Shown here: positions 16,791 to 41,535 of the stretch, in pieces
Position numbering within the stretch: position 1 is the first letter of the stretch
How the letters are laid out: the number at the start of each line of letters is the position of its first letter
From: an uncultured Acidimicrobiales bacterium
GTDB taxonomy: Bacteria; Actinomycetota; Acidimicrobiia; Acidimicrobiales; SZUA-35
Direction of reading: 5' to 3'
DNA: 64,000 nt
Assembly: GCA_963723995.1 (NCBI GenBank)
Contig: CAVRSZ010000007.1
Coordinates: 557,580-621,579, forward strand
The notes under the pieces: model-generated
Seen by the model: the letters and a program-made list of their open reading frames with translations, nothing else
Told to the model about the DNA's origin: nothing
Database searches by the model: none
Program-made: the position numbers and the translations under genes

Positions 16791-16796
16791 CCCGCC

Positions 16797-19763: not shown

Positions 19764-19787
19764 CAGGACGAGCGCTCGGGCAGGGGC

Positions 19788-23399: not shown

Positions 23400-24292
23400 C
23401 CACCGTCGTCTGCATCGGGATCGCCGTGCTCGACTACGTGTTTCAGGTGGACGAGTTTCCCGCCGGCGAGGGGAAGTTCTATGCCCGAGGCTACCGGGAG
23501 ATAGGCGGCGGGGTGGCTGCCAACGCCGCCGCCGCCGTCGCCAAGCTGGGCGGGAGCGCCCGGTATGTCGGCCGGGTTGGAGCGGACCGGGCCGGTGAGC
23601 GCATCACGGCCGATCTTGCCGCGTTGGGTGTGGACGTGTCAGCCGTGGAGTCCATCGACGGGGTGGCGTCACCGGTGTCGGCGATACTGGTGGATACCGC
23701 AGGCGAACGGATCATCGTCAACCACACTCCCCCGGACTTGTTTGCCGGTGGATCGGTTGATCGGGCCGCTCGGATCGCCGGTGCCGACGCAATACTCGTC
23801 GACGTGCGGTGGCCGACCGGGGCTGCTACGGCCCTGGCGGCGGCGCAGGCGGCCGACATCCCCTCCGTGTTCGACTTCGACCGCCCGATGGAGGATGGAG
23901 GGCAGGAACTCGTTGGGCTCGCCAGCCATGTCGTGTTCTCCCAGGGTGCTCTGGCGGCGACGGCTGGAACCGCCGATGTCGTTGTCGGACTCTCACGAAT
24001 CCGGGAGCGCTCGCCGGCCTGGCCGGCGGTCACCACCGGCGCCGACGGGGTGTGGTGGCTGGATGATGACGGGACACACCACCGGGATGCCTTCCCGGTC
24101 GACGTCGTCGACACGGTCGGGGCCGGTGACGTGTTTCACGGTGCCTTCGCCCTTGCTCTGGGAGAGGGGCGTTCGGAGCACGAAGCGGTCGAGTTTGCGG
24201 CCGCGGCGGCGGCCATCAAGTGCTCCCGACCGGGAGGGCGGGACGGGACGCCGAACCGGGACGATGTGGAACGCCTCCTCGGAGCACACTGA
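23396..24292 (+). CDS. PfkB-family carbohydrate kinase (ribokinase-like)
   Basis: 298 aa. VVCIGIAVLDYVF, GGGVAANAAAAVAKLGG and the C-terminal DTVGAGDVFHGAFALAL signature are present. Confidence 0.8.
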   Translation: MTTVVCIGIAVLDYVFQVDEFPAGEGKFYARGYREIGGGVAANAAAAVAKLGGSARYVGRVGADRAGERITADLAALGVDVSAVESIDGVASPVSAILVDTAGERIIVNHTPPDLFAGGSVDRAARIAGADAILVDVRWPTGAATALAAAQAADIPSVFDFDRPMEDGGQELVGLASHVVFSQGALAATAGTADVVVGLSRIRERSPAWPAVTTGADGVWWLDDDGTHHRDAFPVDVVDTVGAGDVFHGAFALALGEGRSEHEAVEFAAAAAAIKCSRPGGRDGTPNRDDVERLLGAH

Positions 24293-24515
24293 CGCAAGAA
24301 GGATTTGGAGATCCTCGATGAGCCTTGGAGTGATGGCGCTCGCCTACCCAAGCACCAGTACGGGCTCGTGTACGGGAGGGCATGAGGAGGAGCTGCTGGC
24401 CCTTGCCGCCCACTCGAGCCTCCCGGTCGTCAGTCCGACCTAGCCGGAGATGAATCTGCGTCGTTGTTCACCGTATGAGCATCATGGTGTCCGCCGCCGT
24501 CTGACGAGCTTCAGC

Positions 24516-25028
24516 TCAGGAGAACAGGTCGGTGATCAGCTCGGTTCGATCGATGTTGCCGACGTGGGTGACCCATTCGTCCTGCAGCTTGTAGAGCACG
24601 ACGAACACCCAGATTCCGACGCGATGCCGACTGTAGATCTCGGCGACCCGCTCGGGTCGAAAGTGTCGGATCGTGGCATAGATCAGGAACAACGGCTCCA
24701 GGAAATTGGGGAAGAAGAAGAACACGATCTCAGCGCTGCTGATGAAGAACAGCAGCTGTCCGACAGTGCGGAAAAGGAAGAGCACGATCACCGTGCGTCT
24801 GATTTTCCAGTTCCGGGCGGCGACAACCATGCCCACGTAGGTGAACCAGTCGGCGGCCTTGTCGATCAGCTGGTAGGGCTCGTCATCGAGGCCCAGCGGG
24901 ATGAGCAGGTCGCCGTCAACGGTGTCGAGTACGAAGTTCGCCCATCCTGCGGCGAATGGGAACGGCACGATCAACACCGGAACGATGAACTTCGCCGCGA
25001 TAATGACGGCGATCGCGATCCATTTCAT
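24516..25028 (-). CDS. hypothetical integral membrane protein
   Basis: 170 aa with 4-5 hydrophobic helices. Codon usage is visibly less GC-biased than in its neighbours. Confidence 0.45.
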   Translation of the reverse strand: MKWIAIAVIIAAKFIVPVLIVPFPFAAGWANFVLDTVDGDLLIPLGLDDEPYQLIDKAADWFTYVGMVVAARNWKIRRTVIVLFLFRTVGQLLFFISSAEIVFFFFPNFLEPLFLIYATIRHFRPERVAEIYSRHRVGIWVFVVLYKLQDEWVTHVGNIDRTELITDLFS

Positions 25029-25552
25029 GGCCTACCTCGCACCATCAAGATGACTTCGATACTAGGCAGTCGGCGGGTCAATGGGTGTATTGAGCATGCA
25101 TCACTGATCGGAAACGGTTCGCTCCACGCCTGGGGGTGATGGATGCTCCACGATGCCTGCGTCGACTACTTCGACCGCGATCTGGAACCAGGCCCGTCAC
25201 GTCCACTCAAACCTGCGATCGTTCCCGGTATCCCCCGGAGGACCCGTACCGCCAAATCGGCCGATTTCGTTCTCCTGCTCGGTCCGATCGTCCCCGTGCG
25301 ATCCATTGTGGGAGTTGCGCTGGACGTCGGGTACTGCGGTCGTGATCGACGAGATCGTCCGGTTCGAAGGTCCGTCCGATCCGGGCGACGAGACGATCCC
25401 GGACACCTTCACCAGTCGATGCGGGACAAGACGCAACCTATGGCCCGGGACAGGCCCCACTAAAGGGAGAGCCCGCCACAATCCGACCGGCGCCGGTCGA
25501 CAACGTTTCGGCAAAGCCGAGACTCTGCTGCGCCGCCCCAGGCGGCAAAACG

Positions 25553-25595
25553 TGGACTGTACTGAACTTGAACCTGTGACCTCACGCGTGTGAGG
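25553..25595 (-). repeat. 43-nt copy of the 3-prime half of tRNA-Val(CAC) (att-like, distal)
   Basis: TGGACTGTACTGAACTTGAACCTGTGACCTCACGCGTGTGAGG matches 41462-41504 at 39/43. It covers the discriminator through the anticodon loop only, and no 5-prime half is present. Confidence 0.75.
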
Positions 25596-26165
25596 GCTCA
25601 GACCCTGCTCGAGCGTGCGAAATCGGCAGGAGTACCGCCGCTCGATCGGCAACCGACCACTCGTATCCCCGGGACTCGCCCACGAAGCATCGACCTGAGT
25701 GTTCGAGACCCAACGGCGAAGGCCCCCGGGCGTCGGTCAATACGTCGACAGCCGAGGACCCCGATGCCCGAGCCGATCGCACACGAACCTCCCGGAACGC
25801 TATGCCGCCTCTCGAACTGGTGGCAGCCCGGTCGAGCCACTGGCGAGGGCTTTCCACGGAGCGTCCATCCCGGTCGAGTTCGACGAGAGATGCAGTCAGG
25901 TCCCGAACTGCGGCAAGCCATCATCATCAACGCCCCAGCCCGTGCTTGGCCGGCTGGGAGCGAGAACGCGGCATCAGTCAGGGCCGCACGCCGCCAGCCT
26001 GATGATTCCCCAAGCCGATTAGGTCATCGGGGCTATGCAACCTTCGAGTCGCCGTGTCGACATACCGGGAGTATCGGTTGGCCAAGCATCCAAGGCCACT
26101 GACAAGGAACCGGACGGCGCAGACCATCAGACCGTGCGTTGTGGGACCGATGAGACGAGGACACC

Positions 26166-29102
26166 ATGAACATCTCCTATTCCAGCGGAAGACAGCCGGT
26201 TCAATCGTCACGGGGCTGGCAATGGCGGGCCGGCCTCGCCTTCATGGCCGCAGCATTGGTGGCATCAGCCGCCTTGACCGCCGGTCCGGCGAGCGCGACC
26301 GACCTCGACTCGATCGAGGCGTCCTTCCGCTCCCAGCAGGATGCGCTGGCCGAGCGACAGCTCCTGGAGCTGGCCCGGCTCGACAGCTACTGGGACCAGA
26401 AGATCTCGGAGCGTGAGGCTGAGGCGGCGGCCGAGCAGGCCGACCTCCAGCGCAGGCTCGACGCCGCCGTTGCCCCGGTGCTGGCCCAGCGCGACGACCG
26501 GCTGGCCGATGTGGAGGCCCGCCGACAGTCTGCGCTCGAGCTCGTCGATGAGGTGTACAGGACAAAGCGGGCCGAGAAGGAAGCATGGGTGGCTGAGCAC
26601 TCGTCGGATCTGGCGGCAGACGCCAAGCCGTTGTCGGACGACGCGGCGAAGATCGTCGAGGCCGAGATGAAGGAGGCCCGCAAGGCCGAAGAGGAGCCGA
26701 TCAAGGTGGCGGAGAAGGACACCATCGATCCACTGAAGGAGCAGTACAAGGCGGTCAAGGATCACGCGGAGACCGACCGGAAGGCGCTCGAGGCTGATCA
26801 GAAGACGTCTGCGGCGGAGCTGGCCGAATCCTACGAGCGGCTTGTCGCCGCCACAGAGACCGAGTCGGAGGATCGGCTCGCCGATCTTGAAGACGAGGCC
26901 GACAAGCTCGAGTTCGACTACAAATCAACCAAGGATGAACTGACCACCCGGTCCAAGGTCGAAATCGACGAGGCCAAGGACGCGGGCGAGGACACCGGAG
27001 CGATGAGCGAAGCCTGGAAGGCCCGCCTGACCGAGCTGAAGGCGCTCTACGAGGAGCAGTCGAACGACTTGGAGGAGCAGTTCGACACGACGAAGACGGC
27101 GACGAAGGCCCAACTGAGCGCCCTGAAGGCAGACAACGATGCGCAAGCCAAGTACCAGGACGAGGTCGACGATGCTCGGCTCGACAACTTCGATGCCGAC
27201 ACCGACGAGCTGTTGCTGTCGCTCACCATCGTCATCAAGGAGACCGAGGCGGCGTTCAAGGTCCAGCTGGACGACCTCAAGGCCATCTATGAGGTGAAGG
27301 AAGCCGTTGCCGTCTCGGAAACGGACGCCTTCCGTTCGGCACTCGAAGGCATCGTCGACCTCGTCGACAAACAGCACGCCGATGCCCGCAAGAGCGTCGA
27401 GGACAATGCCAAGAATGAGCACGACATCATCGACGTGCAGACGGAAACCGAGATCGTGCTCGTCGAGGCGCCGTTCCAGCGGCGGCTCAACGACAGCCGG
27501 GTTTCCCTCGAGAGCGACATCGTCAACCTCAAAGCCGATCACGACAACGCCCGCTCGGCTCTGGAACGACGCCACCTACGTGAGGAACTGCTCGCCTCGA
27601 CCGACTACCAGATCCTGCGCACACGGACCAAGAAGTACCTTGACAGCGCTGCTGGGGCCACAGTCCCTCTCGACAACTTCTATGATCCGACAAGCGACAT
27701 CGGCTCCATGTTCAATGTGGCCAAGACCATCGGGGCCGACCACACGGCACTGACCGGCGCCGGGGTCAAGGTCGCCCTGCTCGACACCGGTGTGGCGCCG
27801 GTCAACGGTCTGGCCCAGGCGAATGTGGTTCTCGGTCCCGATTTCTCGTTCGAGGATCTCGACGACGACCTCCGAGGCATCGACACAAACGGCCACGGGA
27901 CCCATCTGGCCGGGATCATCGTCGGGTCCGATGATGCCTGGCTCGCCGGTGACCAAACCCGAACCGAGTCGCGGTCGCTGGGTATCGCACCCGACGCCGA
28001 ACTCGTCGCAGTCAAGGCAGCAACCGCCACCGGCGCCACCGACGTCTCCCAGGTCATCGCCGGGATCAACTGGATCATCCGCTACAACCAGGAGAACCCG
28101 ACGAGTCCGATCAGGGTGCTGAACCTGGCCTACGGCACCAACAGCGAGCAGGACTACTCGATCGACCCCCTGTCGTACGCCGTCGAGCGGGCCTGGAAGG
28201 CCGGAGTCGTGGTCGTTGTCGCCGCCGGCAACGAAGGCTGGGACTCTTCACACCTGACCAACCCGGGCCGAAACCCCTACGTGATCGCCGTCGGCGCTTC
28301 CCAAGCTGCCGGCAACAAGACGGTCGTCGCCGGGTATTCCTCGGAGGGCTCGCCGGATCGCGGTGTCGACCTCGTGGCCCCCGGCCGTTCCATCGTGAGC
28401 CTGCGCAATCCCGGCTCCTTCAGCGACACGGTCAACGGGCAGGGTCGGGTCGGCGACCGCCTGGTCCGGGGTTCGGGCACGAGCCAAGCCACAGCCGTGG
28501 TATCCGGCGCCGTGGCGCTACTGCTCGAAGACCGGCCCTCTCTCACGCCCGACCAGGTCAAGACCCTGCTCATGGCCACCGCCGATCCGATCGCCGACGG
28601 CGACCCGCGGGCCAACGGTGCCGGGGTTCTCGACATCGGAAAGGCGCTCGACACCGACACCATCTACAGCTCACCGCAGGCCTGGACGCCTTCGGACGGC
28701 TCGGGCAGCCTCGAAGCCGCCCGGGGCTCGAGCCACATCCCACTTGACGACGGCACCCTGCTCTTCGGAGACACCGACGTGTTTGGCAACACCTACGCCG
28801 ATGACGGCTGGGCCACCGATGAGTGGACGGGGCGGACCTGGCGGGCCGCCGGCTGGCGTGGACGGACGTGGCGAAGCGACAGCTGGGAGGGACGCAGCTG
28901 GCGGGGCGACAGCTGGTATGGCCGGAGCTGGCGCGACGACGGCTGGGTGGGACGCAGCTGGCGGGCGGAAGACTGGGAGGGACGGACCTGGCGAGCCGAC
29001 CGCTGGGAAGGACGGACCTGGCGCAGCGACGCCTGGGAAGGGCGCAGCTGGCGGGCCGAAGACTGGGAGGGACGGACCTGGCGAGGGTTTGGCTGCTTCT
29101 GA
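26166..29102 (+). CDS. secreted S8 (subtilisin-like) serine peptidase with ~450-aa N-terminal coiled-coil region and C-terminal Trp/Arg decapeptide repeats
   Basis: 978 aa. The signal-like N-terminus is WRAGLAFMAAALVASAALTAGPASA. A long E/K/D/A-rich helical region follows. The catalytic triad blocks are VALLDTGV (Asp), NGHGTHLAGII (His) and GSGTSQATAVVSGAVALL (Ser). The tail is 9-10 x [x-D/E-x-W-x-G-R-S/T-W-R], ending GFGCF. Confidence 0.85.
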   Translation: MNISYSSGRQPVQSSRGWQWRAGLAFMAAALVASAALTAGPASATDLDSIEASFRSQQDALAERQLLELARLDSYWDQKISEREAEAAAEQADLQRRLDAAVAPVLAQRDDRLADVEARRQSALELVDEVYRTKRAEKEAWVAEHSSDLAADAKPLSDDAAKIVEAEMKEARKAEEEPIKVAEKDTIDPLKEQYKAVKDHAETDRKALEADQKTSAAELAESYERLVAATETESEDRLADLEDEADKLEFDYKSTKDELTTRSKVEIDEAKDAGEDTGAMSEAWKARLTELKALYEEQSNDLEEQFDTTKTATKAQLSALKADNDAQAKYQDEVDDARLDNFDADTDELLLSLTIVIKETEAAFKVQLDDLKAIYEVKEAVAVSETDAFRSALEGIVDLVDKQHADARKSVEDNAKNEHDIIDVQTETEIVLVEAPFQRRLNDSRVSLESDIVNLKADHDNARSALERRHLREELLASTDYQILRTRTKKYLDSAAGATVPLDNFYDPTSDIGSMFNVAKTIGADHTALTGAGVKVALLDTGVAPVNGLAQANVVLGPDFSFEDLDDDLRGIDTNGHGTHLAGIIVGSDDAWLAGDQTRTESRSLGIAPDAELVAVKAATATGATDVSQVIAGINWIIRYNQENPTSPIRVLNLAYGTNSEQDYSIDPLSYAVERAWKAGVVVVVAAGNEGWDSSHLTNPGRNPYVIAVGASQAAGNKTVVAGYSSEGSPDRGVDLVAPGRSIVSLRNPGSFSDTVNGQGRVGDRLVRGSGTSQATAVVSGAVALLLEDRPSLTPDQVKTLLMATADPIADGDPRANGAGVLDIGKALDTDTIYSSPQAWTPSDGSGSLEAARGSSHIPLDDGTLLFGDTDVFGNTYADDGWATDEWTGRTWRAAGWRGRTWRSDSWEGRSWRGDSWYGRSWRDDGWVGRSWRAEDWEGRTWRADRWEGRTWRSDAWEGRSWRAEDWEGRTWRGFGCF
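28800..29084 (+). repeat. 30-bp-period coding repeat (W-x-G-R-S/T-W-R decapeptides)
   Basis: DDGWATDEWTGRTWR AAGWRGRTWR SDSWEGRSWR GDSWYGRSWR DDGWVGRSWR AEDWEGRTWR ADRWEGRTWR SDAWEGRSWR AEDWEGRTWR. Confidence 0.9.
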
Positions 29103-29136
29103 GGGCCGTCGCTCCCCGGTGGGTGCCCGGACCTGC

Positions 29137-31677
29137 TCAGGCAGAACCCGGGATTCGGGTCGATGCCCGGACCAACCGGGTGACGAGCCAGTCCGTCAGC
29201 TCGTCGGCGGGAAGCGGCCGAGACAGGTAGTGGCCCTGAACGATGTCGCAACCGAGGTCTTCCAGAATGTCCCAGGTGACCCGATCCTCGACCCCCTCGG
29301 CCACCGAACGCATGCCGAGGGAGTGGGCGAGCTCGATCACCGTCCGGACGATCGATGAGTCTTCGATGCTGTCGGTGGCGAGCGGTTGGACGAACGACTT
29401 GTCCACTTTGAGCTCGTCGGCCGGCAGTTGACGCAGGTAGGAGAGCGAGGAGTAGCCGGTGCCAAAATCGTCTATGGCGATGCGAAAGCCGCGGTCGTGG
29501 AGCCGCCGGAGCGACGAGATGCAATTGTCGAAGTCCGTCATCATCTCGCTCTCGGTGACCTCCAGCGTCACCCGAGAACGGTCGATGGCGGATTCAGAGG
29601 TCCTCGCATCCAAAACATCGAGAATGTCGGCGTCCACGAGAGTCAACGCCGACAGGTTGATGGCGACTCCGAGTCCGAGCCCTGCCTGGTCCCAGGCTCG
29701 GACTTGGTCCAGTGCCTCTTCGATCACGAACCTGGTCAAACCGGGCATCAGGCCGACTCTGGCCGCCAGGGCCACGAACTCCTCGGGAGCGATGAGGCCC
29801 AGCGTGGGGTGCTGCCAACGGACAAGGGCCTCGACTCCTATGATCTGACCTGTGCCGATCGCCGCCTTCGGCTGATAGTCAACCGTCAGGAGGCGGCCGG
29901 CGATCGCTTTCGACAACTCGCCGGCAAGAGCGAGCCGTTGGGTCGAATGCTGATCACGCTCCTCCTGGTAGCGCTCGATGCCGGCGGACCCGGGCTCCTT
30001 GGCGGTGTACATCGCAATATCTGCGCGCTGTAGCAGCAGCGATGCGTGATCGCCATCGGTCGGAAACGATGCGATACCGATGGCGGCGCTGATGGCCAGG
30101 GAGATCCCTCCGAGTTCTATGGGCCGTCTGAGCCGTTCGCGAAACCGAGCGGCGACATCGACGGCTTCTTCGATGTCCGACACCGAGGGCAACAGCACGG
30201 CGAACTCGTCGCCGCCCAGTCGAGCGAGCTGGGCCGACACCGGCGCCACCGCCGAGAGCCGACCGGCAACCTCCTCCAGAAGCAGATCGCCGGTGCGATG
30301 ACCGAGTGTGTCGTTGACCTCCTTGAACCGGTTCAGATCCAGGAGGAGAACACAGACCTTGTCGGCGTTCCTCGCTGCCCTCTCGACGGCGCGGTCGGTC
30401 CACTCGACCAGAGCCTGCCGGTTCCCGAGACCGGTGAGCTGGTCGTGGGTGGCGTTGTACTCGTTCTCCGCTACCTCGATTCGGAGTCGATCGGCCAGCG
30501 TGCTCCTCTCTATCGACATCGCCGTCTGGTTGCTCAGCGCCGCCAGCACCCTGGCATCCTCGTCGTCGTAGGAGCGCACGTCACCAAGCCGGTTCCATAC
30601 GATGAGAGCGCCCCGGATATCTCGACTGTTGGTCAACGGGGCCGCCATCAGGTCCCGGGCATCCCTCTCGGCAAGAAGGGCGGCCTCGCCCTCGTCTCCC
30701 GGCTTGCGACCGATCACCAGGGGCTCCTGGCGGGAGTCGAACGCCTTCAAGATCAACTCTTCATCGATCTCGTCGACCGCCCTCAACTGCAGCACGCCAT
30801 CCTGGTCGACCCGGGCGCAGAACGGTGGGCTCTCACCGGTGGCGTTGACCACGACGAGTTCGGCCCACTCGGAGTGGAGCACGTCCCGGGCGCGATCCAG
30901 ACCGAGCCTCATGGTGCTGGTCAGCTCCGGGGCCTCACTCAAGCTCTTCGTCACCTCGTACAACTGCTGCAGGGTCCGATGGCGCTGTTGGATCGTGAGC
31001 AGTGCGCGGTAGCCGAGGTAGGCGACCACCAATGGGGAGGCAACGAGTAGACCACCGGCGACATGTACCTGCAGCATCGTGGCAGCGACCAGCGCCAGAC
31101 TGGCGACGGCGAGCTCGCCAAGCGAGCCGACGGCTCCCACCTTCATCGTCAGGTTCAAATCGGGACGTTCGGCCTCTTTGAGGCTTATCACCGCCGTCAC
31201 AGCCAGCGTGCCGGCGATGCTGGTACACAGCGCCGACGCCATGGCTGCGAGCCACACACCGACGACGCCGTCGACGAGACCGACGACCCAGTAGTAGGTA
31301 CCGATGGCGAGCGCTATCTCGAACAGAAAATAGCCTGAGTTGAAGATGAGTTTCAGCCTGGACTGTCGCGACAACAATGCCAGCGACGCGATCCCCCCAA
31401 CGAGCCGGGCCGACACCAGGGTGACGGGCGAGGTGAAGAGCAGCCCGATGACGATCGCGAGTTCCACGAACGACAACGAATGGGCGTTGTCACCGAATTC
31501 GACGTGAACGGCAAAATGCTCGGCGGCCACGAACGCCGCGACCATGACGAGCCACGGGACTCGAACGTCCGGCTCCGGTCCGGTGAAGTCCCCAATCACC
31601 AGAAGCAGGATGCCGGCTACCGCAAGACCAAGGCTGAGCGCAGTGACCCTGCGGGCCGTTTGGCGAGCTGATGGCAT
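29137..31677 (-). CDS. membrane-anchored GAF-GGDEF-EAL signalling protein (c-di-GMP turnover)
   Basis: 846 aa with an N-terminal polytopic region. The GGDEF block is LARLGGDEFAVLL and the EAL block is GVEALVRWQHP...ELKVDKSF...VAEGVE. Confidence 0.85.
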   Translation of the reverse strand: MPSARQTARRVTALSLGLAVAGILLLVIGDFTGPEPDVRVPWLVMVAAFVAAEHFAVHVEFGDNAHSLSFVELAIVIGLLFTSPVTLVSARLVGGIASLALLSRQSRLKLIFNSGYFLFEIALAIGTYYWVVGLVDGVVGVWLAAMASALCTSIAGTLAVTAVISLKEAERPDLNLTMKVGAVGSLGELAVASLALVAATMLQVHVAGGLLVASPLVVAYLGYRALLTIQQRHRTLQQLYEVTKSLSEAPELTSTMRLGLDRARDVLHSEWAELVVVNATGESPPFCARVDQDGVLQLRAVDEIDEELILKAFDSRQEPLVIGRKPGDEGEAALLAERDARDLMAAPLTNSRDIRGALIVWNRLGDVRSYDDEDARVLAALSNQTAMSIERSTLADRLRIEVAENEYNATHDQLTGLGNRQALVEWTDRAVERAARNADKVCVLLLDLNRFKEVNDTLGHRTGDLLLEEVAGRLSAVAPVSAQLARLGGDEFAVLLPSVSDIEEAVDVAARFRERLRRPIELGGISLAISAAIGIASFPTDGDHASLLLQRADIAMYTAKEPGSAGIERYQEERDQHSTQRLALAGELSKAIAGRLLTVDYQPKAAIGTGQIIGVEALVRWQHPTLGLIAPEEFVALAARVGLMPGLTRFVIEEALDQVRAWDQAGLGLGVAINLSALTLVDADILDVLDARTSESAIDRSRVTLEVTESEMMTDFDNCISSLRRLHDRGFRIAIDDFGTGYSSLSYLRQLPADELKVDKSFVQPLATDSIEDSSIVRTVIELAHSLGMRSVAEGVEDRVTWDILEDLGCDIVQGHYLSRPLPADELTDWLVTRLVRASTRIPGSA

Positions 31678-32507
31678 CTCCGTGTCGCACGCTTCCGGAT
31701 AGGGACGCCCCTTGCGTCCGATCCCGATCCATCGGCGCGAAGCGAACTTCGCTGAGCGGTAGGCGCCGCCGCCAAGGGCGGGGCGATCTCCGTCCCATCC
31801 AGAATTGGGCCATCGGGGCCATTCGGAGTGGCCGGCTCGGTGCCGTTCTGTCCAAGGATCAGTCGCCCCTCGATCGGGCCATCTCCACCTGCATCAGTCG
31901 TCGTGCTCCCGGTCAGGGCTCGATCGTCGAGCTGGCCGACGGCGGCCTCGACGAAGAACGTACCGTGGATGACCGGAAGAGCGCCTGCCTCGATGACCGC
32001 CTCTCCCTCGAAGCCGAACCGGTTGCCGACGTCGTTCGCCCGGAAGCGGTTGAAGTCGTCCTGCCATGGATGGACGTCGGTGACCAATTCGCGCCCCACC
32101 GCCCAGAACTCGGCGACGTTGTAGAGGCTGGTGTCCTGGCCCTTGAGCACATACGAATCCCTTGCGAAGTCCTGGACCATACCGTCGATCACCTCGATCG
32201 TGCCGGTGTCGTGGAGGGCGGTGTACTCGGCGAAGTACTCCCAGTCGGTGTCGCCGATGAACGTCGGTGGGACGGTGGAGAACACGACAATGTCGTAGAT
32301 CCGGTGGGGGTTGATCTCCCAGGTGCGGGTCCACACCACGTCGGCGTTCGCAGCGTTTGAACCAGGCTGGTACCCGGCGTTCAGGACCAGCTCCATAGCA
32401 CCGGTGAGCACTTGTTGCCGGGAGCGTTCGTGGGCATAGGCGGGCACCGCCAGCCCCAGCATCACCAGTCCGAACACCGCCATAAGCCCGAAGAGTCGCT
32501 TGAGCAT
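31617..32507 (-). CDS. secreted protein of unknown function
   Basis: 296 aa. The signal peptide is MLKRLFGLMAVFGLVMLGLAVPAYA. The 3-prime end overlaps the annotated start of the GGDEF-EAL gene, so one of the two boundaries is probably shorter. Confidence 0.5.
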   Translation of the reverse strand: MLKRLFGLMAVFGLVMLGLAVPAYAHERSRQQVLTGAMELVLNAGYQPGSNAANADVVWTRTWEINPHRIYDIVVFSTVPPTFIGDTDWEYFAEYTALHDTGTIEVIDGMVQDFARDSYVLKGQDTSLYNVAEFWAVGRELVTDVHPWQDDFNRFRANDVGNRFGFEGEAVIEAGALPVIHGTFFVEAAVGQLDDRALTGSTTTDAGGDGPIEGRLILGQNGTEPATPNGPDGPILDGTEIAPPLAAAPTAQRSSLRADGSGSDARGVPIRKRATRRCHQLAKRPAGSLRSALVLR

Positions 32508-32611
32508 GACTGTCCTCGTTCATCTGGTCGGACCCGGCCCCGTCGCCGAACTGAGTTCCATCGTCCGCGCCGGGGTCCCGCCCTGGTAGCGGCGATGGTC
32601 CCGACCCGTCG

Positions 32612-32803
32612 ATAGTCCGTCCGTCCGATGGTTTCCAGCCACCGGACGCCCTCCACGGTGAACGTGCCGGTGAAGGTGTTCGGCCCGGTCACGCCGCCCG
32701 TGTACCCGAGCACGTTGCCGACGTCGTCGACACCGAATCGGTGGTAGTCGTTCTGCGACCGGTGAGACCCATCAGCCCGGTCGCACGAATCGCCGAGAAG
32801 GTG
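32612..32803 (-). pseudogene. fragment paralogous to the secreted protein at 31617-32507
   Basis: HLLGDSCDRADGSHRSQNDYHRFGVDDVGNVLGYTGGVTGPNTFTGTFTVEG aligns by eye with FWAVGRELVTDVHPWQDDFNRFRANDVGNRFGFEGEAVIEAGALPVIHGTFFVEA. No N-terminus or signal peptide is present. Confidence 0.45.
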
Positions 32804-32999
32804 GGCATCGAGCCGGAGGTGCCGACTGGGCCCGGCAACCGAGAGCGGCCGACCGGGATTCCCGAGCAGTGATATCGAACGCCAGCGTGAGGCTGTTCGT
32901 AGGGTCGGGCGCTGCGTGCCGCGGGTCGAGAGCAAGCTGTGGTGAGAGGGCTGCGTCGACGGCATGCGGCGAGACGAGCACGTGGCTTACGCTGACTGG

Positions 33000-35737
33000 A
33001 TGCCGGTGGTGACAACCAAGCTGAACCTGCCATCGCTGCGTCGGCGACTGGTGTCGCGTGCCCGTCTGACCGAGGAGCTGGAGGCAAACCTCGGTGACGG
33101 CGTGCGAATGGTCTTGGTCGCGGCGCCGGCCGGTTTCGGCAAGACGACTCTTCTGACCCAGTGGCTCTCCGTGCTCGATCCATCGGACCGCAAGGTGGCC
33201 TGGTTCGCTCTGGACGCCGCCGACAACGAACTGGCCAGGTTTCTTACCCACCTCGTAGCGGCGGTCCAGAAGGCTGATTCCGCCATCGGCCTCGAGGCGC
33301 TCGCCTTGCTCGAGTCCGGCGGAACGGCCGGCTCGGATGCAGTGTTGAGCAGCCTGGTCAATGATCTCGACGTCCTTGCCGGTCCGATGGTGGTGGCGCT
33401 CGATGACTACCACGTCATCGACCAGGCCGACGTTCATGCAGCCGTTCAGTTCCTGCTCGAGAATCTGCCTGGGCAGGTGATGCTGGCCGTCGCGACACGG
33501 GCCGACCCACCGCTGCCGTTGTCGCGTCTGCGGGCTCGTGGCGAACTTGTCGAGGTGCGTGCCAATGAACTTCGGTTCACCACCCAGGAGGCTGAGGAGT
33601 TCCTCAATGATGTGATGGGTCTGGAGCTGGATCCAACGCTGACCGCTGCACTCGAGAGGCGTACCGAGGGGTGGGCGGCAGGACTGCAGCTGGCTGCCCT
33701 TTCGGCCCGCTCCCGGGTTGACGCCGATGACTCTGGTGGCGTCGCCGGGTTCGTAGAGGCGTTCTCGGGGAGCCATCGGTTCGTTCTCGACTACCTGGTG
33801 GAGGAGGTGCTTGACCAGCAGTCGGACGACGTGCGGTCGTTCCTGCTGGATACCTCGGTGCTGGAGCAACTGACCGGCGGGCTTTGCGATGCCATCACTG
33901 GTCGTGGCGATGGTCAGTCGATGCTCGAGGCCCTTGAGCGCGACAACCTGTTCGTCGTCGCTCTCGATGGGGATCGTCAGTGGTACCGCTACCACCATCT
34001 CTTCGCAGAAGCTCTGCGTTCCCGGCTTGTAGCCCGAGACGCCGAGCGGGTCGGCGAGTTGCATGCTCTCGCCAGCCGGTGGTTCGCCGAGGGCGGCTTG
34101 CTCACCGACGCTGCGAGCCATGCCATGGCAGGCGGCAATCAGGAGCAGGCCGCTGACATGGTCGAACTGGCGGTCGCCGACTCGCGCCGGAGGCGTCAGA
34201 TCCGCCAGCTGCGCGATTTGCTGGTTGCCTTGCCGGACCACCTCGTGCAGGCTCGGCCGCTTCTCAGCACGTACAGGGGGTGGAGCTGTCTTGTCGACGG
34301 TGACGTCGAGGGCGTAGAGGTATGGCTTGCCGCGGCCGAGGCCGGGCTAGGTGAAGCACCCGAACCCGTCGGCGTCACACCAGATTCAACAGGTCCCCTC
34401 GCCGTTGCCTCGAGGGATCGAGAGGCTGAGATCCGCTCGTTGCCGGCGATGATCGACGTCTACCGGGCCTCGGTTGCCCAGGCCCGGGGCGACGTCGGGG
34501 GAACAATCGCGCATGCTCGGCGGGCGCTCGAGCTGGTCGGACCTGAGGATCACTTTCCTCGCGGTGCCGCTGCCGGGTTCCTCGGCATGTCTGCCTGGGC
34601 CGCTGGTGATCTCGGCGCTGCGGTCGAGACCTTCAGCGAGGCGGTCGCCGGCCTGCGCGCCGCGGGCATGGTTGCCGATGAGCTCGGGGCCACCGTCGTG
34701 CTGGCGAACATGTGGCTTGCTGGCGGACGTCCCGACACGGCGCGCCAACTCTACGAGAGAGCCTTGGCGGCCGCCGAGAACCATCCTGGTGGCGTGCTTC
34801 CGACGACTGGTGACCTCCATGTCGGCCTCGCCGACGTCCTCCGAGAGCAGAACGACCTCGAGGGCGCTGCGCATCACCTCCGAGTCGCCAGTGATCTTGG
34901 GGACGCGGCGTCGCTGATCGAGAACCGGCACCGCTGGTTCATCACCGCAGCCGCGCTTCGGCTCGCGCAAGGCGATCTCGACGGCGCTCTCGCAATGCTC
35001 GATTCCGCTGAGCTGCTCTTCCTTCGGGGCTTCTATCCAGACGTGCGACCGATCGCCGCAATGAGAGCGAGAATCCAGAGACTTCAAGGCCGCCTCGACG
35101 AGTCGAGGGAATGGATGCGCGATCGACGGCTCTCGGCAACGGATCCGTTGACCTACCTGGCCGAGTACGACCAGCTCACCGTGGCCCGGCTGCTCATCAC
35201 CGAGGGCGAGACCGACGAGGCACTGGCCCTGCTCGATCGCATCCTCGACGCCGCGACCGACCGTGACCGCGAGGGCAGCCTGATCGAGGGCCGCATGGTG
35301 CGAGCGCTTGCCTATCACGCAGCGGGACACACAAAGTCGGCGGTGGCTGACCTCGCTGACGCGCTCAGTGCCGGAGTACCCGTCGGCTACCGACGGATTT
35401 CTTGGACGAGGGCCCGCCGATGGTCGAGCTCCTTGCCCTCGTCGCCCAGACCGTCCCGGCGCAGGTGGGCCGGCATGTCGAGCAGTTGCTCGCCATCGCC
35501 CAGGTACCTTCGACCCCACCGTCAGTGATCGGCCCCGTCGCCGAAGACGACCTGACGGACCGGGAGCTCGAGGTGCTGCAGAAGCTTGCGACCGAGCTGA
35601 CCGGGCCCGAGATCGCCCGCGAGCTGTACGTGTCGGTGAACACCCTGCGCACCCACACCAAGCACATCTTCACCAAGCTCGGCGTGAAGACACGTCGAGC
35701 CGCAGTAGCCCAAGGTGCCGCTCGCGGCCTGCTGTGA
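33000..35737 (+). pseudogene. MalT/LAL-type large ATP-binding LuxR-family regulator, single frameshift before the HTH domain
   Basis: N-terminus is KLNLPSLRRRLVSRARL...VLVAAPAGFGKTTLL (Walker A), followed by long TPR-like helical repeats. The C-terminal LuxR HTH (LTDRELEVLQKLATELTGPEIARELYVSVNTLRTHTKHIFTKLGV) sits in ORF 35402-35737, in a different frame. Confidence 0.8.
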
Positions 35738-35861
35738 GCCGATCGTATCACCCTCATATCACCCTCGAATCACATCATCTTGTGATGCGGGCTCACCAAG
35801 CCGGTTCGTAGGTTGCGAGTATCGCCGGAACAGGTCCGGCGCTCACGACCAGGAACCCGAA

Positions 35862-36536
35862 ATGAACCTCACCACGAGCCGCCTCACTGCAGCTGCCGGC
35901 CTCTGTGCTGCAGCAGCGGGCGCCATCTTCATCGGCGTCCAGATCAACCACCCACCAGTCGACGTCGATCACCTCGGCACCGCAGAAATGACCGCCCGCG
36001 AGACAGCGAAGGCCCTCATGAGCGTGCTGGCTTTGGCCGGTATCACCGGCATGTTCGTCCACAACCGTCGCCGGTTCGGCGCCGTTGGCCTCGCCGGCTA
36101 CCTGTTGTTGAGTGCCGGCTACCTCGCCATCTTCGCCGTCCAATGCATCGTCGGCTACGTGCTGCCGACCATCGCCCCGACGAACCCGGCCTACGTGCAA
36201 GATGTCCTCGACGCCGCCCTGGGAGGGAGCCCCGAGGGCGACATCGGCTACATGAACGAGCTGCTCCTCGCTTCGGGTCTCGGATTCGCATTCGGGGGCC
36301 TGCTTTTCGGTGTGGCACTCTTCCGAGCCGACATCCTCGCCCGCTGGGCCTCGGCCTTGCTGGCCTACGGCACCATCTCGGTCCTCGCACTGTCCGCATT
36401 GCCCGAGTCGTTCAACCGGCCGTTTGCGGTACCGACCGGCGTTGCGCTGATCGGCCTCGGCATCTCGCTGTGGCGTGATCAGCATCAACCCGTCGAGACG
36501 CCAACCACGGCCCCGGTCGCGACCGCCACCAACTGA
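35862..36536 (+). CDS. hypothetical integral membrane protein
   Basis: 224 aa from ATG 35862, with about 6 TM helices. The stop abuts the next start. Confidence 0.5.
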   Translation: MNLTTSRLTAAAGLCAAAAGAIFIGVQINHPPVDVDHLGTAEMTARETAKALMSVLALAGITGMFVHNRRRFGAVGLAGYLLLSAGYLAIFAVQCIVGYVLPTIAPTNPAYVQDVLDAALGGSPEGDIGYMNELLLASGLGFAFGGLLFGVALFRADILARWASALLAYGTISVLALSALPESFNRPFAVPTGVALIGLGISLWRDQHQPVETPTTAPVATATN

Positions 36537-37195
36537 TGGGCGCCCACGAGCGGGGCTGGCCCGTGCCGCTGACACTCGTCCTACTCAGTGCAATCCCGCT
36601 GGCCGCCGGGGCACTACGACTGGTGCAACTCGCCGGCGGCCCAGCTGTCATACCGGCCGACGACCGATTCGCCAGCTTCCCGGTCCTGGTCGTCGTCCAC
36701 ATCGTCGGCGCTGCGGTCTACGCCCTCGGCGGAGTCGGACAACTCATGCCACGGCTCCGGCGTCAGCACCTCGACCGGCACCGCCACAACGGTCGAGTGG
36801 TCGGCGCAGCCGGCCTGCTCGTCGCAACGTCGGCGCTGGGGATGACGCTGCTCTACGCAGCCAAGCCCGGCACCGGCGACCTGCTCTACCTACTGCGACT
36901 CGTCTTCGGGACGGCGATGGTCGCCTCCCTGGTGCTCGGCATCAGCGCCGTCCGCCGACGCGACATCGCAGCACACCGAGCCTGGATGATCCGTGGGTAC
37001 GCAATCGGCCTTGCGGCCGGCACCCAAGCCTTCACCGAAGGCATCGCCGGCGCCCTGATTGGCACCGACGTCTTCACCGCCGACCTGGCCAAGGGAGCCG
37101 GGTGGTTCATCAACCTGGCCGTGGCCGAATGGGCCATCAGCCGCCCAACACGCCGCCGGGCCACCCACCTGCACCACGAGAGAGTGCTCGCATGA
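36536..37195 (+). CDS. DUF2306-like membrane protein
   Basis: 219 aa, polytopic. The VRRRDIAAHRAWMIRGYAIGLAAG block is typical of the DUF2306 family. Confidence 0.5.
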   Translation: MGAHERGWPVPLTLVLLSAIPLAAGALRLVQLAGGPAVIPADDRFASFPVLVVVHIVGAAVYALGGVGQLMPRLRRQHLDRHRHNGRVVGAAGLLVATSALGMTLLYAAKPGTGDLLYLLRLVFGTAMVASLVLGISAVRRRDIAAHRAWMIRGYAIGLAAGTQAFTEGIAGALIGTDVFTADLAKGAGWFINLAVAEWAISRPTRRRATHLHHERVLA

Positions 37196-37467
37196 ACGCG
37201 ACCTACGTCGTGCGCGTGCAGGGCCATCTCGACGACCACTGGGGAGCATGGCTGGGCGAACTCCAGTTGACCCACCATCAGGACGGTACAACCACCCTCA
37301 CAGTAGAACCCGGGGATCAGGCACGACTCCACGGACTGCTCGCTGCGCTCCGCGACCTCGGCGCCGTACTCCTCGAACTCCGGACGACCGAAACGCCCGC
37401 CACCGATCAGGAAGGCCAGAACGCGACGCAAGAATCAGGTGGAGAGTCAGGAATCCGAACCCGCTAG
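37192..37467 (+). CDS. small conserved hypothetical protein
   Basis: ATGA overlap with the upstream stop. MNATYVVRVQGHLDDHWGAWLGELQLTHHQDGTTTLTVEPGDQARLHGLLAALRDLGAVLLEL resembles a widespread small actinobacterial protein family. Confidence 0.5.
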   Translation: MNATYVVRVQGHLDDHWGAWLGELQLTHHQDGTTTLTVEPGDQARLHGLLAALRDLGAVLLELRTTETPATDQEGQNATQESGGESGIRTR

Positions 37468-37642
37468 TGGTGGCCTGGCTAGGAGACGAGCCCAAAGTTG
37501 GAGGGTCTCAGGCCTGATGTTGGGCCTCATGAGTCCTACCACGCCACCCCCAGCCCCGGGCGCACCCCACCGAACGAGCGTTCTAGCCGACGACGTTTCG
37601 GAGGAGCCGAAACTCGAGTTTGCCGCCTCCGGCGGCAAAACA

Positions 37643-37685
37643 TGGACCGTACTGGACTTGAACCAGTGACCTCTCGCATGTAAGG
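37643..37685 (-). repeat. 43-nt copy of a tRNA-Val 3-prime half (att-like, middle; anticodon position reads TAC)
   Basis: TGGACCGTACTGGACTTGAACCAGTGACCTCTCGCATGTAAGG matches 41462-41504 at 41/43. No 5-prime half is present. Confidence 0.8.
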
Positions 37686-38127
37686 CTGCTCGGACGATGC
37701 CCTGGCATGCGAAATCGGCAGCAACGCCTCAGCCCGTGCCTGGTCGGCTGGCAGGGAGAACGCTGCGATGTCAGTCATGGACGCCACAACAGCAATCGGC
37801 TTACCAACACCCGGGCGGCCTGCAGCTGCTTGCATCACCATGCCGTGGGCACCCGAGTCGACGCCGGCACCGATGTCCTGCTCGGCACCCTCACCCTAGC
37901 CCGGCGTACCCTCACGAGGTTGTCCTTGGCCTCCTACGAGCCAACCCGGGAAGATGCGACTCTGAGAGTGGGCAGACTCCGACGACCGCAGCGTGCCCAA
38001 TTGGGATTCCCGATTGGTGGTTATCCGGCCGTTCGACGGCCAAATCCAATGGACTGCGACCACCGGCTTCGGGCGTGGCATGATCGACCCGCTGCTTCCG
38101 TGAGGCGTTGCGGATCATTTCCGCTAG

Positions 38128-38394
38128 ATGTACGATTCGTACATGAGCGAAGTGGCAGTCAGCGAAGCCCGCAACCGGCTGGCCGAAGTGATCGAAGAGT
38201 CCCGTCGCTCCGGTGAACCGATCTCGGTAACGCGTCGCGGGCGACGCGTGGCGGTGATCATCGACTCCGATGCGTTCGATCGTCTCGTCGAGATCGCCGA
38301 TGACGTTGACGATCGTCGAGAACTCGAGGCAGCCAGAGCCGACGACGACTACGTGCCCTGGGATGATGTGAAGGCGATGCTGGGGCTCGAGTGA
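38128..38394 (+). CDS. type II antitoxin, Phd/YefM family
   Basis: 88 aa. VAVSEARNRLAEVIEESRRSGEPISVTRRGRRVAVIID is the YefM/Phd N-terminal signature. A 4-nt overlap links it to the toxin gene. Confidence 0.8.
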   Translation: MYDSYMSEVAVSEARNRLAEVIEESRRSGEPISVTRRGRRVAVIIDSDAFDRLVEIADDVDDRRELEAARADDDYVPWDDVKAMLGLE

Positions 38395-38651
38395 GCCGCT
38401 ACCACGTGGAGGTCGCGCGCCGTGCGGTGAAGTCGATCGCCAAGCTTCCACGAGCCGAACAGCAGAGAGTGCGGGCTGCGATTGATCTCCTCGCGGACGA
38501 ACCTCGCCCCCCGGGTTGCACCAAGCTTGCCGGGGAGGATTCGGTGTATCGAGTGCGTGTCGGCGACTACCGGATCCTCTACGAAGTCATCGATGCGCGC
38601 CTGGTGGTTCACGTCGTGCGAGTCGGCCATCGCCGTGACGTCTACCGGTAG
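38391..38651 (+). CDS. type II toxin, RelE/ParE family
   Basis: 86 aa. AKLPRAEQQRVRAAIDLLADEPRPPGCTKLAGEDSVYRVRVGDYRILYEVIDARLVVHVVRVGHRRDVY matches the RelE/ParE fold pattern. Confidence 0.8.
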   Translation: MSRYHVEVARRAVKSIAKLPRAEQQRVRAAIDLLADEPRPPGCTKLAGEDSVYRVRVGDYRILYEVIDARLVVHVVRVGHRRDVYR

Positions 38652-38858
38652 CGCCCCCACGCTCATTCGCAGTGGACTCATTACCGAGCGGCTTGGCCTG
38701 GCCGGATCGCCGGTTTGTCAGCGGCTCTTCGGCAGAGGGATGGGGACTCCTGCTGACATCTTGCCGGCCATCGCGGGCGCCGTGGATGCACGTCCGCGGA
38801 GCAGCAGGAGTAGACCGACAGTCGTGCTTGCCATGCCAGCGAGGACCCAGCCGGTTAA

Positions 38859-39592
38859 CAGGCAGTCGGCCACGGTACCGATGGAGGGCCGGGCGCCGAT
38901 CTCGTCGAGACGTTCGGTGAACCGGATCGAGATGAATTGGGATCTGGCGTCGGAGCGGGCGACCAGGCCGAACCAGACGTCTCGATCCCCTGGAGCGGCG
39001 TGCCATCTCGACCGCGTCGAGCACCATGGAGGTCTGCATGTGGGTGGCGACCCGCCACCCCTGACCCCGGCGATGGCGAGTTCTCGCATCAAGCGGGTCC
39101 CGGCCGATCTCATGTCCAGCCCGCCGTGTCGCCTTCCACAGCTTGCGGGCGCCGCACACCTTCCGGTTTGCCACCCACAACCCCACAAGGACCGGCATCA
39201 ACTGGGCGTCCGAGATCGCCCGTGTCGAGACTTCACGCTGGCGACGCTTGGCGGCGTAGTAGGTGCTCGTAGGCCGCGTTGTGCAGATGGACTCGACCCC
39301 GAACTCGTCAGGGTCGGTGTCGATGAACTCGACAATCATCGGTGTTGGCGGTCGAGTTCCGCCCCGAAAAACTCGCTGCCCGCCGCAGGATCTCGTTGGC
39401 TCGTTCCAACTCCCGGACCTTGGCCTCGAGGTCTTTGATCCTGGCTGCGTCCTCGGTCTTGGTGCCCACTCGATCACCGTCGTCGATGTCGGCCTGACGG
39501 GCCCACGCCCGAAACGACTCGACCCCGTAGTCGAGCTGGTCGGCAACCTGTTCCCCAGGACCGGCCCCACCCCTTCTGACCTGATTTCCTAA
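38859..39592 (-). mobile_element. second IS3-family relic (orfA C-terminus, orfB with internal deletion and frameshifts)
   Basis: orfA end is QADIDDGDRVGTKTEDAARIKDLEAKVRELERANEILRRAASFF. orfB pieces are FIDTDPDEFGVESIC...YYAAKRR...VCGARKLW, LMRELAIAGVRG, MVLDAVEMA and SDARSQFISIRFTERLDEIGARPSIGTVADC, in different frames. Confidence 0.7.
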
Positions 39593-41461
39593 GTCTTGTC
39601 AAGGGATTGTTGTCACGCTGGGTGGCCGCGCTGGGGTTGGCCCGATGGCGGTTCGCTCGGGTGCAGGTGGTGAGCGCTGGCTGGTCTGGGTGGGGACTGC
39701 CGGGGTTGCTGGTGTGCCCGTGGTGGCCGTTCCTCGGGTTCAGGTCATGGGGTGAGTCGTCCTTGCCGGGTGGCTCGGTTCCGGCGGCGGGTGCCGGCGG
39801 GGACGGCCAGCTCGGCGCAGATCGTCCGAGCGGTGGCCCGATCGATGGAGTTGCCGTCGAGGTCGCGGACCTCGTAGGGCTTTTGATCCTGGAGGACTTT
39901 CCAGGCCCGGCCGGCCAGCTTGCGGGCAACGGCGGTAGTGGCCGAGATGTGGGTGTGACCCCGATCGCACATGAGTTTGCGGTAGTGGGCAGCCAGGTCG
40001 GGGTCGTGGTGGCGGGCAACGTTGGCCGCCTGGTAGAACGCCAAGCGGAGATCGGCCGGCCCTTCCTTGGTGATGTGACGTGACGGAGACCGGTATTGCC
40101 CGGACTCCCACCGGGAAGGGTTCAACCCGACATGAGCGGCGGCGGCCTTGGCCGACCGCAGATGAGTCCCGGCCCCCCACCAACCCCGGATCGACGCCGA
40201 ACAGATGGGCCCGATGCCGGGAATGGTGCACAGCACGTCGTCGGGCCACATCTGTTGCCAGCGGCCCAGGGCCCGGTCGGTCACGGCGGCGACCCGAGCA
40301 TCGGCGATGGCGATGTCGTCGAGGCACTCACCGATTTCCCAGGCCAGATCGTCCAGGTCCAAACGACCGAGCCAGAACTCGCTCCACCCACCCGCTGCAG
40401 CCCGGATCCGCTTGGCCCGCCGGGTCGGGTCGGTGTCGCGGGAATGAGCCGCCACCTCCTCGGCGATACTGGCCGTCCGAGCCCTGGCCAGGGCCCGAAT
40501 GTCGCTCCAGCGGCCCAGAACCGGCTGGGCGACACCGTGACCGCCACAAGCACGCCACAGATCAGGGAACGCCCACGCCGACAACGCCCACAGGCGGCAG
40601 TCAGCCCGGTGGGCGTCCACGATGGCCCGGTGACGGCGTCGCATCGCCCGCCGCAACCCGATCTGACCGGCCAGTGGCACCGGTACCTCCCTCACGCCGA
40701 GGATCTCGGGGCTGCGGGCCAACATGTCCGCGTCGATCACGTCGGTCTTGTTCGCCCCAGCGATCGCTTTCCGCAGCCGGGCCGAGTCCCGGTTGGCAAC
40801 GAACCCGACCCGACACCCTGACTCCGACACTGCGTGCAGCAACGGCAGCCACGTCCCAGCGGTCGGCTCTGCCACAACCATCGCCGGTGCCCAGTCAGCC
40901 AGGCGGACCGTCAACTCTTCCAGCCCGGCCAACGTCGGCTGAACCCGGAAGTCTTCTGCGATGCCCGGTCCTCGGATGGCGACCTGGTGGGCTGCCACTA
41001 CGGCGGCGTCGATCCCGATCGACACGACCGGATCTTGATTCTCTATCGTGTTCATGGAGGGCTCTCCCTATCACTTGGAGTGCCGGACGAGGCCCGTCGA
41101 GTGCCAGCTCACAATCGAGTCTCGGACAGCACACTGTTCTGGTCGACGGGAGAGCCCTCGAGCACGCTCAACTCGAAGTGGGCGTTCTCCCGACACCACC
41201 CCGAACACGGATCCTGGCGAGCCCGTAGCCCACCCAGCCATGTGATTCATCCGGTGCACCGGGCCCCGACCACCGGGTCCGCGAGCCCCACCAATTTCCT
41301 CAACCGGGTCTGCTCGGGAGACGAGCCCTGGCGACACTCAGGTCAACGAGCCCAAAGCTCAGGGCTTATGCGTCACCACCAGGACCCCTCCCAAGGCCAC
41401 GCTACGTGACCGCCAACCCCAAACCGGGGAGGCCCTGTAATCAATACAAGGGGTTTTGCAG
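39593..41461 (-). mobile_element. IS110-family element (bounds approximate)
   Basis: The transposase gene has ~150 bp of non-coding DNA downstream and ~400 bp upstream. The left bound is taken from where the IS3 relic is cut off, and the right bound cannot be fixed before the tRNA gene. Confidence 0.35.
39745..41055 (-). CDS. IS110-family (DEDD) transposase
   Basis: 436 aa. N-terminal blocks are VSIGIDAAV, VVAEPTAGTW and NKTDVIDADMLAR. The C-terminal blocks are LCTIPGIGPICSASI...HVGLNPSRWESGQ...ITKEGPADLR. Confidence 0.85.
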   Translation of the reverse strand: MNTIENQDPVVSIGIDAAVVAAHQVAIRGPGIAEDFRVQPTLAGLEELTVRLADWAPAMVVAEPTAGTWLPLLHAVSESGCRVGFVANRDSARLRKAIAGANKTDVIDADMLARSPEILGVREVPVPLAGQIGLRRAMRRRHRAIVDAHRADCRLWALSAWAFPDLWRACGGHGVAQPVLGRWSDIRALARARTASIAEEVAAHSRDTDPTRRAKRIRAAAGGWSEFWLGRLDLDDLAWEIGECLDDIAIADARVAAVTDRALGRWQQMWPDDVLCTIPGIGPICSASIRGWWGAGTHLRSAKAAAAHVGLNPSRWESGQYRSPSRHITKEGPADLRLAFYQAANVARHHDPDLAAHYRKLMCDRGHTHISATTAVARKLAGRAWKVLQDQKPYEVRDLDGNSIDRATARTICAELAVPAGTRRRNRATRQGRLTP

Positions 41462-41535
41462 TGGACCGTACTGGACTTGAACCAGTGACCTCTCGCGTGT
41501 GAGGCGAGCGCTCTAGCCAACTGAGCTAACGGTCC
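41462..41535 (-). tRNA. tRNA-Val (anticodon CAC)
   Basis: The reverse complement folds as a 74-nt cloverleaf. Acceptor GGACCGT/ACGGTCC, D stem GCTC/GAGC, anticodon stem CTCGC/GCGAG with loop CTCACAC, T arm ACTGG-TTCAAGT-CCAGT, discriminator A. CCA is not encoded. Confidence 0.9.

Follow-up and report, generated by a model that had tools for sequence, protein, structure and literature searches.

Elements that integrate into tRNA genes by means of a tyrosine recombinase classically carry an att identity segment that starts in the anticodon loop of the target tRNA and reaches its 3' end (PMC2440964). In Streptomyces, several actinomycete integrative conjugative elements (AICEs) or defective AICEs, together with an old remnant, are lined up between direct repeats at a single tRNA gene, a tRNA-Arg hotspot, and AICE03, which is integrated in a tRNA-Val gene, is bordered by 46-nt direct repeats (PMC9513070). 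The concept of cis-mobilizable elements (CIMEs) has been defined for integrative conjugative elements (ICEs) of the ICESt1/ICESt3 type (PMC5704250). A survey from 2011 found the Acidimicrobidae to be devoid of AICEs of the FtsK/TraB type (PMC3218068), and in the literature that we searched, no paper paired Acidimicrobiia with an AICE. Here, we analyzed a 64-kb stretch of DNA from an uncultured Acidimicrobiales bacterium (contig CAVRSZ010000007.1, positions 557,580 to 621,579; from here on, the window), in which the 3' half of the tRNA-Val(CAC) gene recurs twice and delimits two adjacent segments of 3.8 and 12.1 kb. We consider it likely that this locus arose by the tandem accretion of related tRNA-Val-integrating elements, most likely of the AICE type, followed by decay.

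Read in this way, the locus resembles the accretion described in Streptomyces (PMC9513070) in that successive elements would have used one tRNA gene, with direct repeats of the tRNA 3' end between them and decayed remnants without transfer genes, and in that the contents at the same site differ between strains. It differs from it in that integrase, Xis, Rep, and Tra are missing from every unit, in that the host belongs to the Acidimicrobiales rather than the Actinomycetales, and in that the distal end of the array appears to be truncated by a deletion. The phenomenon as such is well known and would be expected by specialists; what is modestly new is that the host belongs to a little-studied lineage and that every unit has completely lost its mobility genes.

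Based on ARAGORN and Rfam, the only tRNA gene in the window is tRNA-Val(CAC) at 41461-41535 on the minus strand (RF00005, 70.7 bits). A previous reading of the sequence without database searches (from here on, the sequence-only reading) had noticed that the final 43 nt of this gene, which begin in the anticodon loop and end with the discriminator, are repeated in the same direction at 37643-37685 (41/43 identical) and at 25553-25595 (39/43), and we confirmed both partial copies. In a BLAST self-comparison, each partial copy was lengthened by 1 nt, which places core copy 1 at 41462-41505 within the intact gene, core copy 2 at 37643-37686 (42/44 identical, with TAC at the anticodon position), and core copy 3 at 25552-25595 (40/44 identical), all on the minus strand. 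A tRNA 5' half is missing from both partial copies, in which already the 5' strand of the anticodon stem is unrelated. Searching for a 31-nt core pattern with up to three mismatches, we obtained three matches in the window, all on the minus strand, and none in 100 dinucleotide-preserving shuffles; two such recurrences on the same strand are not expected by chance, and nhmmer detected no fourth core copy in the window. The repeats thus have the makeup of att scars, i.e., they consist of the 3' part of a tRNA, and the intact gene is present at one end alone. The suggestion that the distal copy is the older one is compatible with its four mismatches compared with two in copy 2, and these counts are too small to show it.

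The partial copies were also looked for in public sediment metagenome runs (from here on, X1 to X4), in which the organism is present at ~3-4x in short contigs. Contigs from the short-read run X1 match 25317-25695 without a single difference and, therefore, independently confirm copy 3 and both of its junctions. Contigs from X1 and X3 (37057-37656 and 37511-37661) enter copy 2 by 14 to 19 nt from its low-coordinate flank, and the high-coordinate junction of copy 2 (37662-37817) fell outside contig coverage at ~3x. Sequences in the sediment runs that seemed to join 25.58 kb to 41.51 kb turned out to be tRNAs of other organisms. The exact 35-nt core had no match among IMG/VR viral contigs; a 241-nt module gave matches to the tRNA T-arm alone in phages and none in plasmids.

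The repeated unit exceeds the tRNA piece. BLAST aligned 37588-37721 with 25498-25629 (134 nt, 79%), a block made up of two small hairpins, the piece of the tRNA, and ~35 nt beyond it, and aligned 37719-37784 with 25925-25987 (66 nt, 80%). This second block is contiguous with the first at copy 2 and is shifted by ~295 nt at copy 3. With these two blocks, each partial copy is flanked by homologous arms on both sides, as expected if both segments derive from relatives of one element family. On the side of the hairpins, which directly follow core 2 at 37588-37642 on the minus strand and are common to copy 3, the first 55 nt of the arms after copies 2 and 3 are alike, with a z-score of 11.6 versus shuffles (arm alignments were scored in this way throughout). 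On the other side, the far-end (P-type) arm of the 3.8-kb segment (37687-37784, minus strand) is homologous by BLAST and nhmmer to two blocks, 25596-25629 and 25925-25987, of the far-end arm of the 12.1-kb segment (25596-25987, minus strand). The three co-oriented cores, the homologous far-end arms of the two units, and the similar arms after cores 2 and 3 all point to an accretion array. No arm gave a match in Rfam. Self-BLAST of the window returned the 134-nt and 66-nt blocks alone and no duplicated genes; a larger segmental duplication, which the sequence-only reading had named as an outcome that would overturn it, is therefore not seen. As a separate observation, the ~295 nt at 25630-25924 that split the far-end arm at copy 3 are unrelated, ORF-poor DNA.

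Five relatives (L001, L161, L162, L163, and L164) share the right-hand context of the window, consisting of UbiA, DnaJ, a methyltransferase, and tRNA-Val. In each of them, the collinearity with the window breaks off exactly at the tRNA's 3' end. The closest species representative is L001, a metagenome-assembled genome whose methyltransferase abutting the tRNA is 91% identical at the amino acid (aa) level, followed by L161 (86%), L162 (83%), L163 (68%), and L164 (66%). The contigs of L001 and L161 stop at or inside the tRNA and, like a contig from X2, are neutral with respect to the repeats, as co-existing species share identical tRNA 3' halves. In L162, 510 nt follow the tRNA before the contig ends. 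In L163, which has a genome of 5.4 Mb, the tRNA is followed by a long terminator hairpin and then by NmrA, FtsJ, and other genes without a match in the window. A scan of metagenome contigs with the flanking methyltransferase yielded nothing closer than 52%.

In the fifth relative, L164 (L165 is the same contig, with 2x long-read coverage), an arm of ~770 nt separates the tRNA from an AICE-like element. In the order listed, this element encodes a tyrosine integrase that reads in the direction of the tRNA, an Xis with HTH_17, a protein of 510 aa, a protein of the FtsK/SpoIIIE type, and one with DUF2637. A layout of int, xis, and FtsK/SpoIIIE is the organization of AICEs (PMC2440964), and based on these Pfam-level signatures, we regard the L164 element as AICE-like. 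Its integrase scored 24.4 bits against Phage_integrase and is frameshifted; the frameshifts may be sequencing errors of the 2x long-read contig. Thus, a relative carries an integrase-bearing element at the same tRNA gene. The AICE-like element is located at L164:3790-11353, right after tRNA-Val.

The arms of these relatives connect the window to such elements. Beyond the hairpins of copy 2, the window sequence 37453-37568 on the minus strand, the putative integrase-side (P'-type) arm of the 12.1-kb segment, matches L162:2322-2438 with 79.5% identity over 117 nt (E = 1.5e-25, z = 42), and the matching stretch occupies positions 22-138 past the intact tRNA-Val of L162. The arms of L162 and L164 (z = 10.6) have in common the hairpin CCCCTGGTCAGA(N)GGGGTGCG and two GAGGCCT boxes, which are located at +62/+74 in L162 and at +63/+75 in L164. 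The corresponding boxes in the window are GAGGCCC and CAGGCCT, and they have the 12-nt spacing of the L162 and L164 arms. The L164 arm sits between the tRNA and the integrase and, therefore, is element DNA; L163, which is without an element, has nothing resembling it.

On the left side of the array, we compared the window with L166, a Joint Genome Institute (JGI) contig with ~88-93% nucleotide identity. L166 is collinear with 16352-25041 alone, contains no tRNA and no core copy, carries none of the 16 kb, and continues with a major facilitator superfamily (MFS) gene and other genes missing from the window. A related population in X2 diverges at 25232. As the window is no longer collinear with L166 past 25041, which leaves 510 nt up to copy 3, copy 3 adjoins an arm stub and a deletion or rearrangement junction, not conserved chromosome. 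This stub (25042-25551, minus strand) comprises the two hairpins at 25498-25551 followed by ~450 nt without a match in relatives and is probably where a third element, now truncated, begins. The sequence-only reading had stated that it would fall if all relatives carried the same 16 kb at the same place, without polymorphism and with a composition like that of the core; L166 is without it, and the synteny of the five other relatives stops at the tRNA. Together, the repeat limits, the arms, the L164 element, and the synteny breaks support its interpretation of the tRNA-end repeats as att sites of integrated tyrosine recombinase elements.

For mobility genes, we searched Pfam with all large ORFs and with all six frames of the non-coding stretches in which stops were masked, and used tblastn with the L164 Int and Xis. 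Consistent with what had been read from the sequence alone, these searches yielded no remnant of an integrase or excisionase in the window, and neither segment contained a replication or transfer gene. The sole recombinase-type match was an IS110 DEDD transposase, with no Phage_integrase and no HTH_17, and the best tblastn match of the L164 proteins (E = 0.01, 25 bits) was not significant. Hence, no integrase lies beside the tRNA or inside a bounded segment of the window, and the AICE modules (int/xis, replication, FtsK/SpoIIIE-type Tra, and Spd) were seen in L164 alone and not in the att-bounded segments. The order of int, xis, a possible rep, and tra(FtsK/SpoIIIE) beside a tRNA in L164 is like that of the AICEs pSAM2, SLP1, and pMEA300 (PMC2440964); unlike these, the window is without any AICE module, and membership in the class can be claimed for the L164 element alone. 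By contrast, both segments are bounded by cores with arms and are devoid of int, xis, and tra, as expected of CIMEs. Like CIMEs (PMC5704250), they have attL- and attR-type borders, have lost integration and transfer genes, and lie in tandem at the 3' end of the target gene; for the property that defines CIMEs, mobilization in cis by an incoming element, the array contains no functional partner. We refer to the remnants as att-bounded cargo that is CIME-like.

The following scenario would account for these observations. Related integrative elements, most likely of the AICE type and equipped with a tyrosine integrase, an excisionase, and an FtsK/SpoIIIE-type transfer protein, would have inserted successively with tRNA-Val(CAC) as attB. 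Each insertion would have rebuilt the tRNA from the element's own attP copy and pushed the older core, and the element behind it, distally. Later, the recombination, replication, and transfer modules would have been deleted. In the proximal 3.8-kb unit, the interior would have been replaced or deleted around insertions of IS110 and IS3, such that a Phd/ParE addiction pair and both arms stayed. In the 12.1-kb unit, the block of integrase, xis, rep, and tra that would have followed the integrase-side arm would have been removed, such that the cargo now abuts this arm directly. Of the third unit, core 3 and at most 510 nt of an arm would remain; a deletion would have truncated this unit and connected it to the PfkB region. 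We infer the order of these events, the AICE-like nature of the lost modules, and the immobility of the array unless another element supplies a cognate integrase. It is conceivable, if rather doubtful, that the recombinase-less segments are still cassettes mobilizable in cis or in trans, which a cognate AICE-type integrase, incoming or resident elsewhere in the genome, could excise and move; if so, AICEs of the FtsK/TraB type would drive gene flux between Acidimicrobiia and Actinomycetes.

We considered three other explanations, none of which accounts for homologous arms on either side of the copies together with their match to the element arms of relatives. In one, there was a single integration, that of the 3.8-kb unit; the arm that follows copy 2 would then be the chromosome's native flank (B'), the 12.1 kb would be ordinary chromosome, and copy 3 with its arms would have arisen by local duplication of the attR region. 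The arm of copy 2 does match DNA after the intact tRNA of L162, which is possibly an empty site, and relics of mobility are missing from the 12.1-kb unit, whose composition is core-like. Nevertheless, L162 has the hairpin and the GAGGCCT boxes at the same offsets as the arm between tRNA and integrase in L164, and its homology to the window ends after 117 nt. In addition, the homology between the far-end arms of copies 3 and 2 would require ~200 nt to have been duplicated at a distance of 12 kb without a change of orientation, and the close relative L166 is without the 12 kb. We therefore regard a single integration as unlikely.

We find it less plausible still that the partial copies descend from paralogous tRNA-Val genes of an old cluster, for instance a former tRNA-Val(UAC), that decayed by losing their 5' halves in a genome in the course of shedding genes. 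The TAC anticodon of copy 2 and the many deletions in this genome relative to L166 would fit such a history; however, both copies are cut at the same place, which is the anticodon loop, their identity to the 3' half of the CAC gene is 91-95%, they share non-tRNA arms on both sides with one another and with element arms of relatives, and relatives have a single tRNA-Val at the locus. Just as improbable, in our view, is that the ~200-nt module of arm, tRNA 3' half, and hairpins is a dispersed tRNA-derived repeat, similar to a miniature inverted-repeat transposable element (MITE) or a short interspersed nuclear element (SINE), and unrelated to site-specific integration. The size of the unit, which is larger than the tRNA piece, and its hairpins agree with this possibility, as does the fact that the copy count covers the 64-kb window, so that further copies may exist elsewhere in the genome. 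On the other hand, the three copies in 64 kb lie at one locus and are all co-oriented with the tRNA, contigs of the same strain provided no alternative contexts, and the arm is homologous to tRNA-adjacent DNA of relatives.

In addition to the scope of that copy count, several observations weigh against accretion of related elements. The tRNA-proximal arm of the 3.8-kb segment (41314-41460, minus strand) resembles the DNA downstream of the L162 tRNA in its first 13 nt (12/13 matching), and its remainder is only weakly like the other arms (z = 1.9-2.5); homology is not established, and we discounted this arm as evidence. No attR of the L164 element was found within its contig, so that the far-end arms are without a bona fide comparison, and the L162 sequence ends 510 nt past the tRNA, so that it gives no view of any integrase. 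In the 12.1-kb unit, there is no trace of a mobility gene, and we infer that it is element cargo from its borders alone. A shift in composition or codon usage at the segment borders, for which the sequence-only reading had proposed to look, is not present: segment GC contents are 0.657 and 0.661 compared with 0.642 and 0.667 in the flanks, GC contents at third codon positions (GC3) are 0.78-0.80 compared with 0.80-0.83, and the Jensen-Shannon divergences of codon usage of the segments are at most equal to the flank-to-flank value. Finally, as to empty attB sites in relatives, the distant L163 (68% aa) alone has unrelated core-like genes after its tRNA, and no close relative with an empty site joined to the left flank was recovered.

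If accretion of related elements is correct, tRNA-Val(CAC) is an integration hotspot in an uncultured lineage of sediment Acidimicrobiales. This would account for ~16 kb that are absent from relatives, including an unusual subtilase, a c-di-GMP enzyme, and a module of an LAL regulator and a DUF2306 protein. The L164 element suggests that AICE-type elements occur in the Acidimicrobiales, where the early survey had none. For annotation, the partial tRNA copies would become att sites and the segments decayed integrative elements.

The sizes of the two segments and their gene contents are as the sequence-only reading had listed them. The 12.1-kb segment (25596-37642) contains, based on Pfam, an S8 subtilase (26166-29102, plus strand) and a GAF-GGDEF-EAL protein (29137-31677, minus strand), followed by a 296-aa protein with no function assigned (31617-32507, minus strand); these three genes on mixed strands extend over 26166-32507. 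The remaining cargo (32964-37467, plus strand) is a four-gene module recognized by Pfam and by its gene order in two other contigs (L170 and L171). It consists of an LAL regulator with AAA_16, MalT-TPR, and GerE domains (32964-35737), a protein of 273 aa (35715-36536), a membrane protein with DUF2306 (36536-37195), and a small ORF (37192-37467), which is conserved and overlaps the DUF2306 stop codon. The LAL gene has a frameshift near 35399, as the L171 orthologue, a single 899-aa protein, aligns by tblastn in frame 3 up to 35399 and then in frame 2. The small ORF has counterparts in L170 (74 aa) and L171 (70 aa), and its version in the window is extended at the C-terminus by ~24 aa, which reach into the element arm and place the junction of the putative integrase-region deletion at ~37390-37453.

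The four-gene order is also found in L171, an unrelated contig with 73% GC, in which the module has aa identities to the window of 66%, 52%, and 77%, and partly in L170. The best named homologues of the DUF2306 protein are from Actinomycetes (70-75%; Micromonospora, Actinophytocola, Jatrophihabitans, and Nocardioidaceae), with no named Acidimicrobiia among the best 120 matches, while the flanking core methyltransferase is ~50% identical to that of Micromonospora and 68% to that of Acidimicrobiia. That the DUF2306 protein is closer to Actinomycetes than core genes are, and that the module recurs in a contig with 73% GC, suggests, without being proof, that the cargo is foreign, and for the DUF2306 protein, it suggests an inter-class transfer.

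The left side of the array appears to be a region of pervasive gene loss. The losses in the window compared with L166 comprise a phytase-like gene (junction 21725/21847), the greater part of a 2-hydroxyacid dehydrogenase gene (junction 23190/23205), a 468-aa Fucose_iso_C-like gene (junction 24344/24351), and parts of a DUF3754 gene.

The 3.8-kb segment (37686-41460) contains a type II toxin-antitoxin pair, an IS3 relic, an IS110 insertion sequence, and non-coding arms, and nothing else. The toxin-antitoxin pair (38128-38651, plus strand), identified by Pfam, consists of a Phd/YefM antitoxin (38128-38394; PF02604, E = 7e-15) and a ParE/RelE toxin (38391-38651; PF05016, E = 1e-12). The IS3-family relic (~38652-39575, minus strand), which had no Pfam match, was recognized by eye in ORF translations as an OrfA-like leucine-zipper fragment (39308-39469) with a degenerate frame downstream. 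The IS110-family insertion sequence is on the minus strand, with its transposase at 39745-41055 (Pfam DEDD_Tnp_IS110 and Transposase_20). Contigs from X1, X3, and X4 enter three different contexts from 39575-39577, and identical contigs of higher depth from X2, X4, and X1 stop at 41255-41313; based on these limits, IS110 spans 39576-41313, with approximate ends. The insertion thus lies ~150 nt from the tRNA, and those ~150 nt are outside IS110. IS110 is seemingly multi-copy in the sediment metagenomes, as identical deeper contigs occurred in runs that otherwise hold 90-97% relatives alone.

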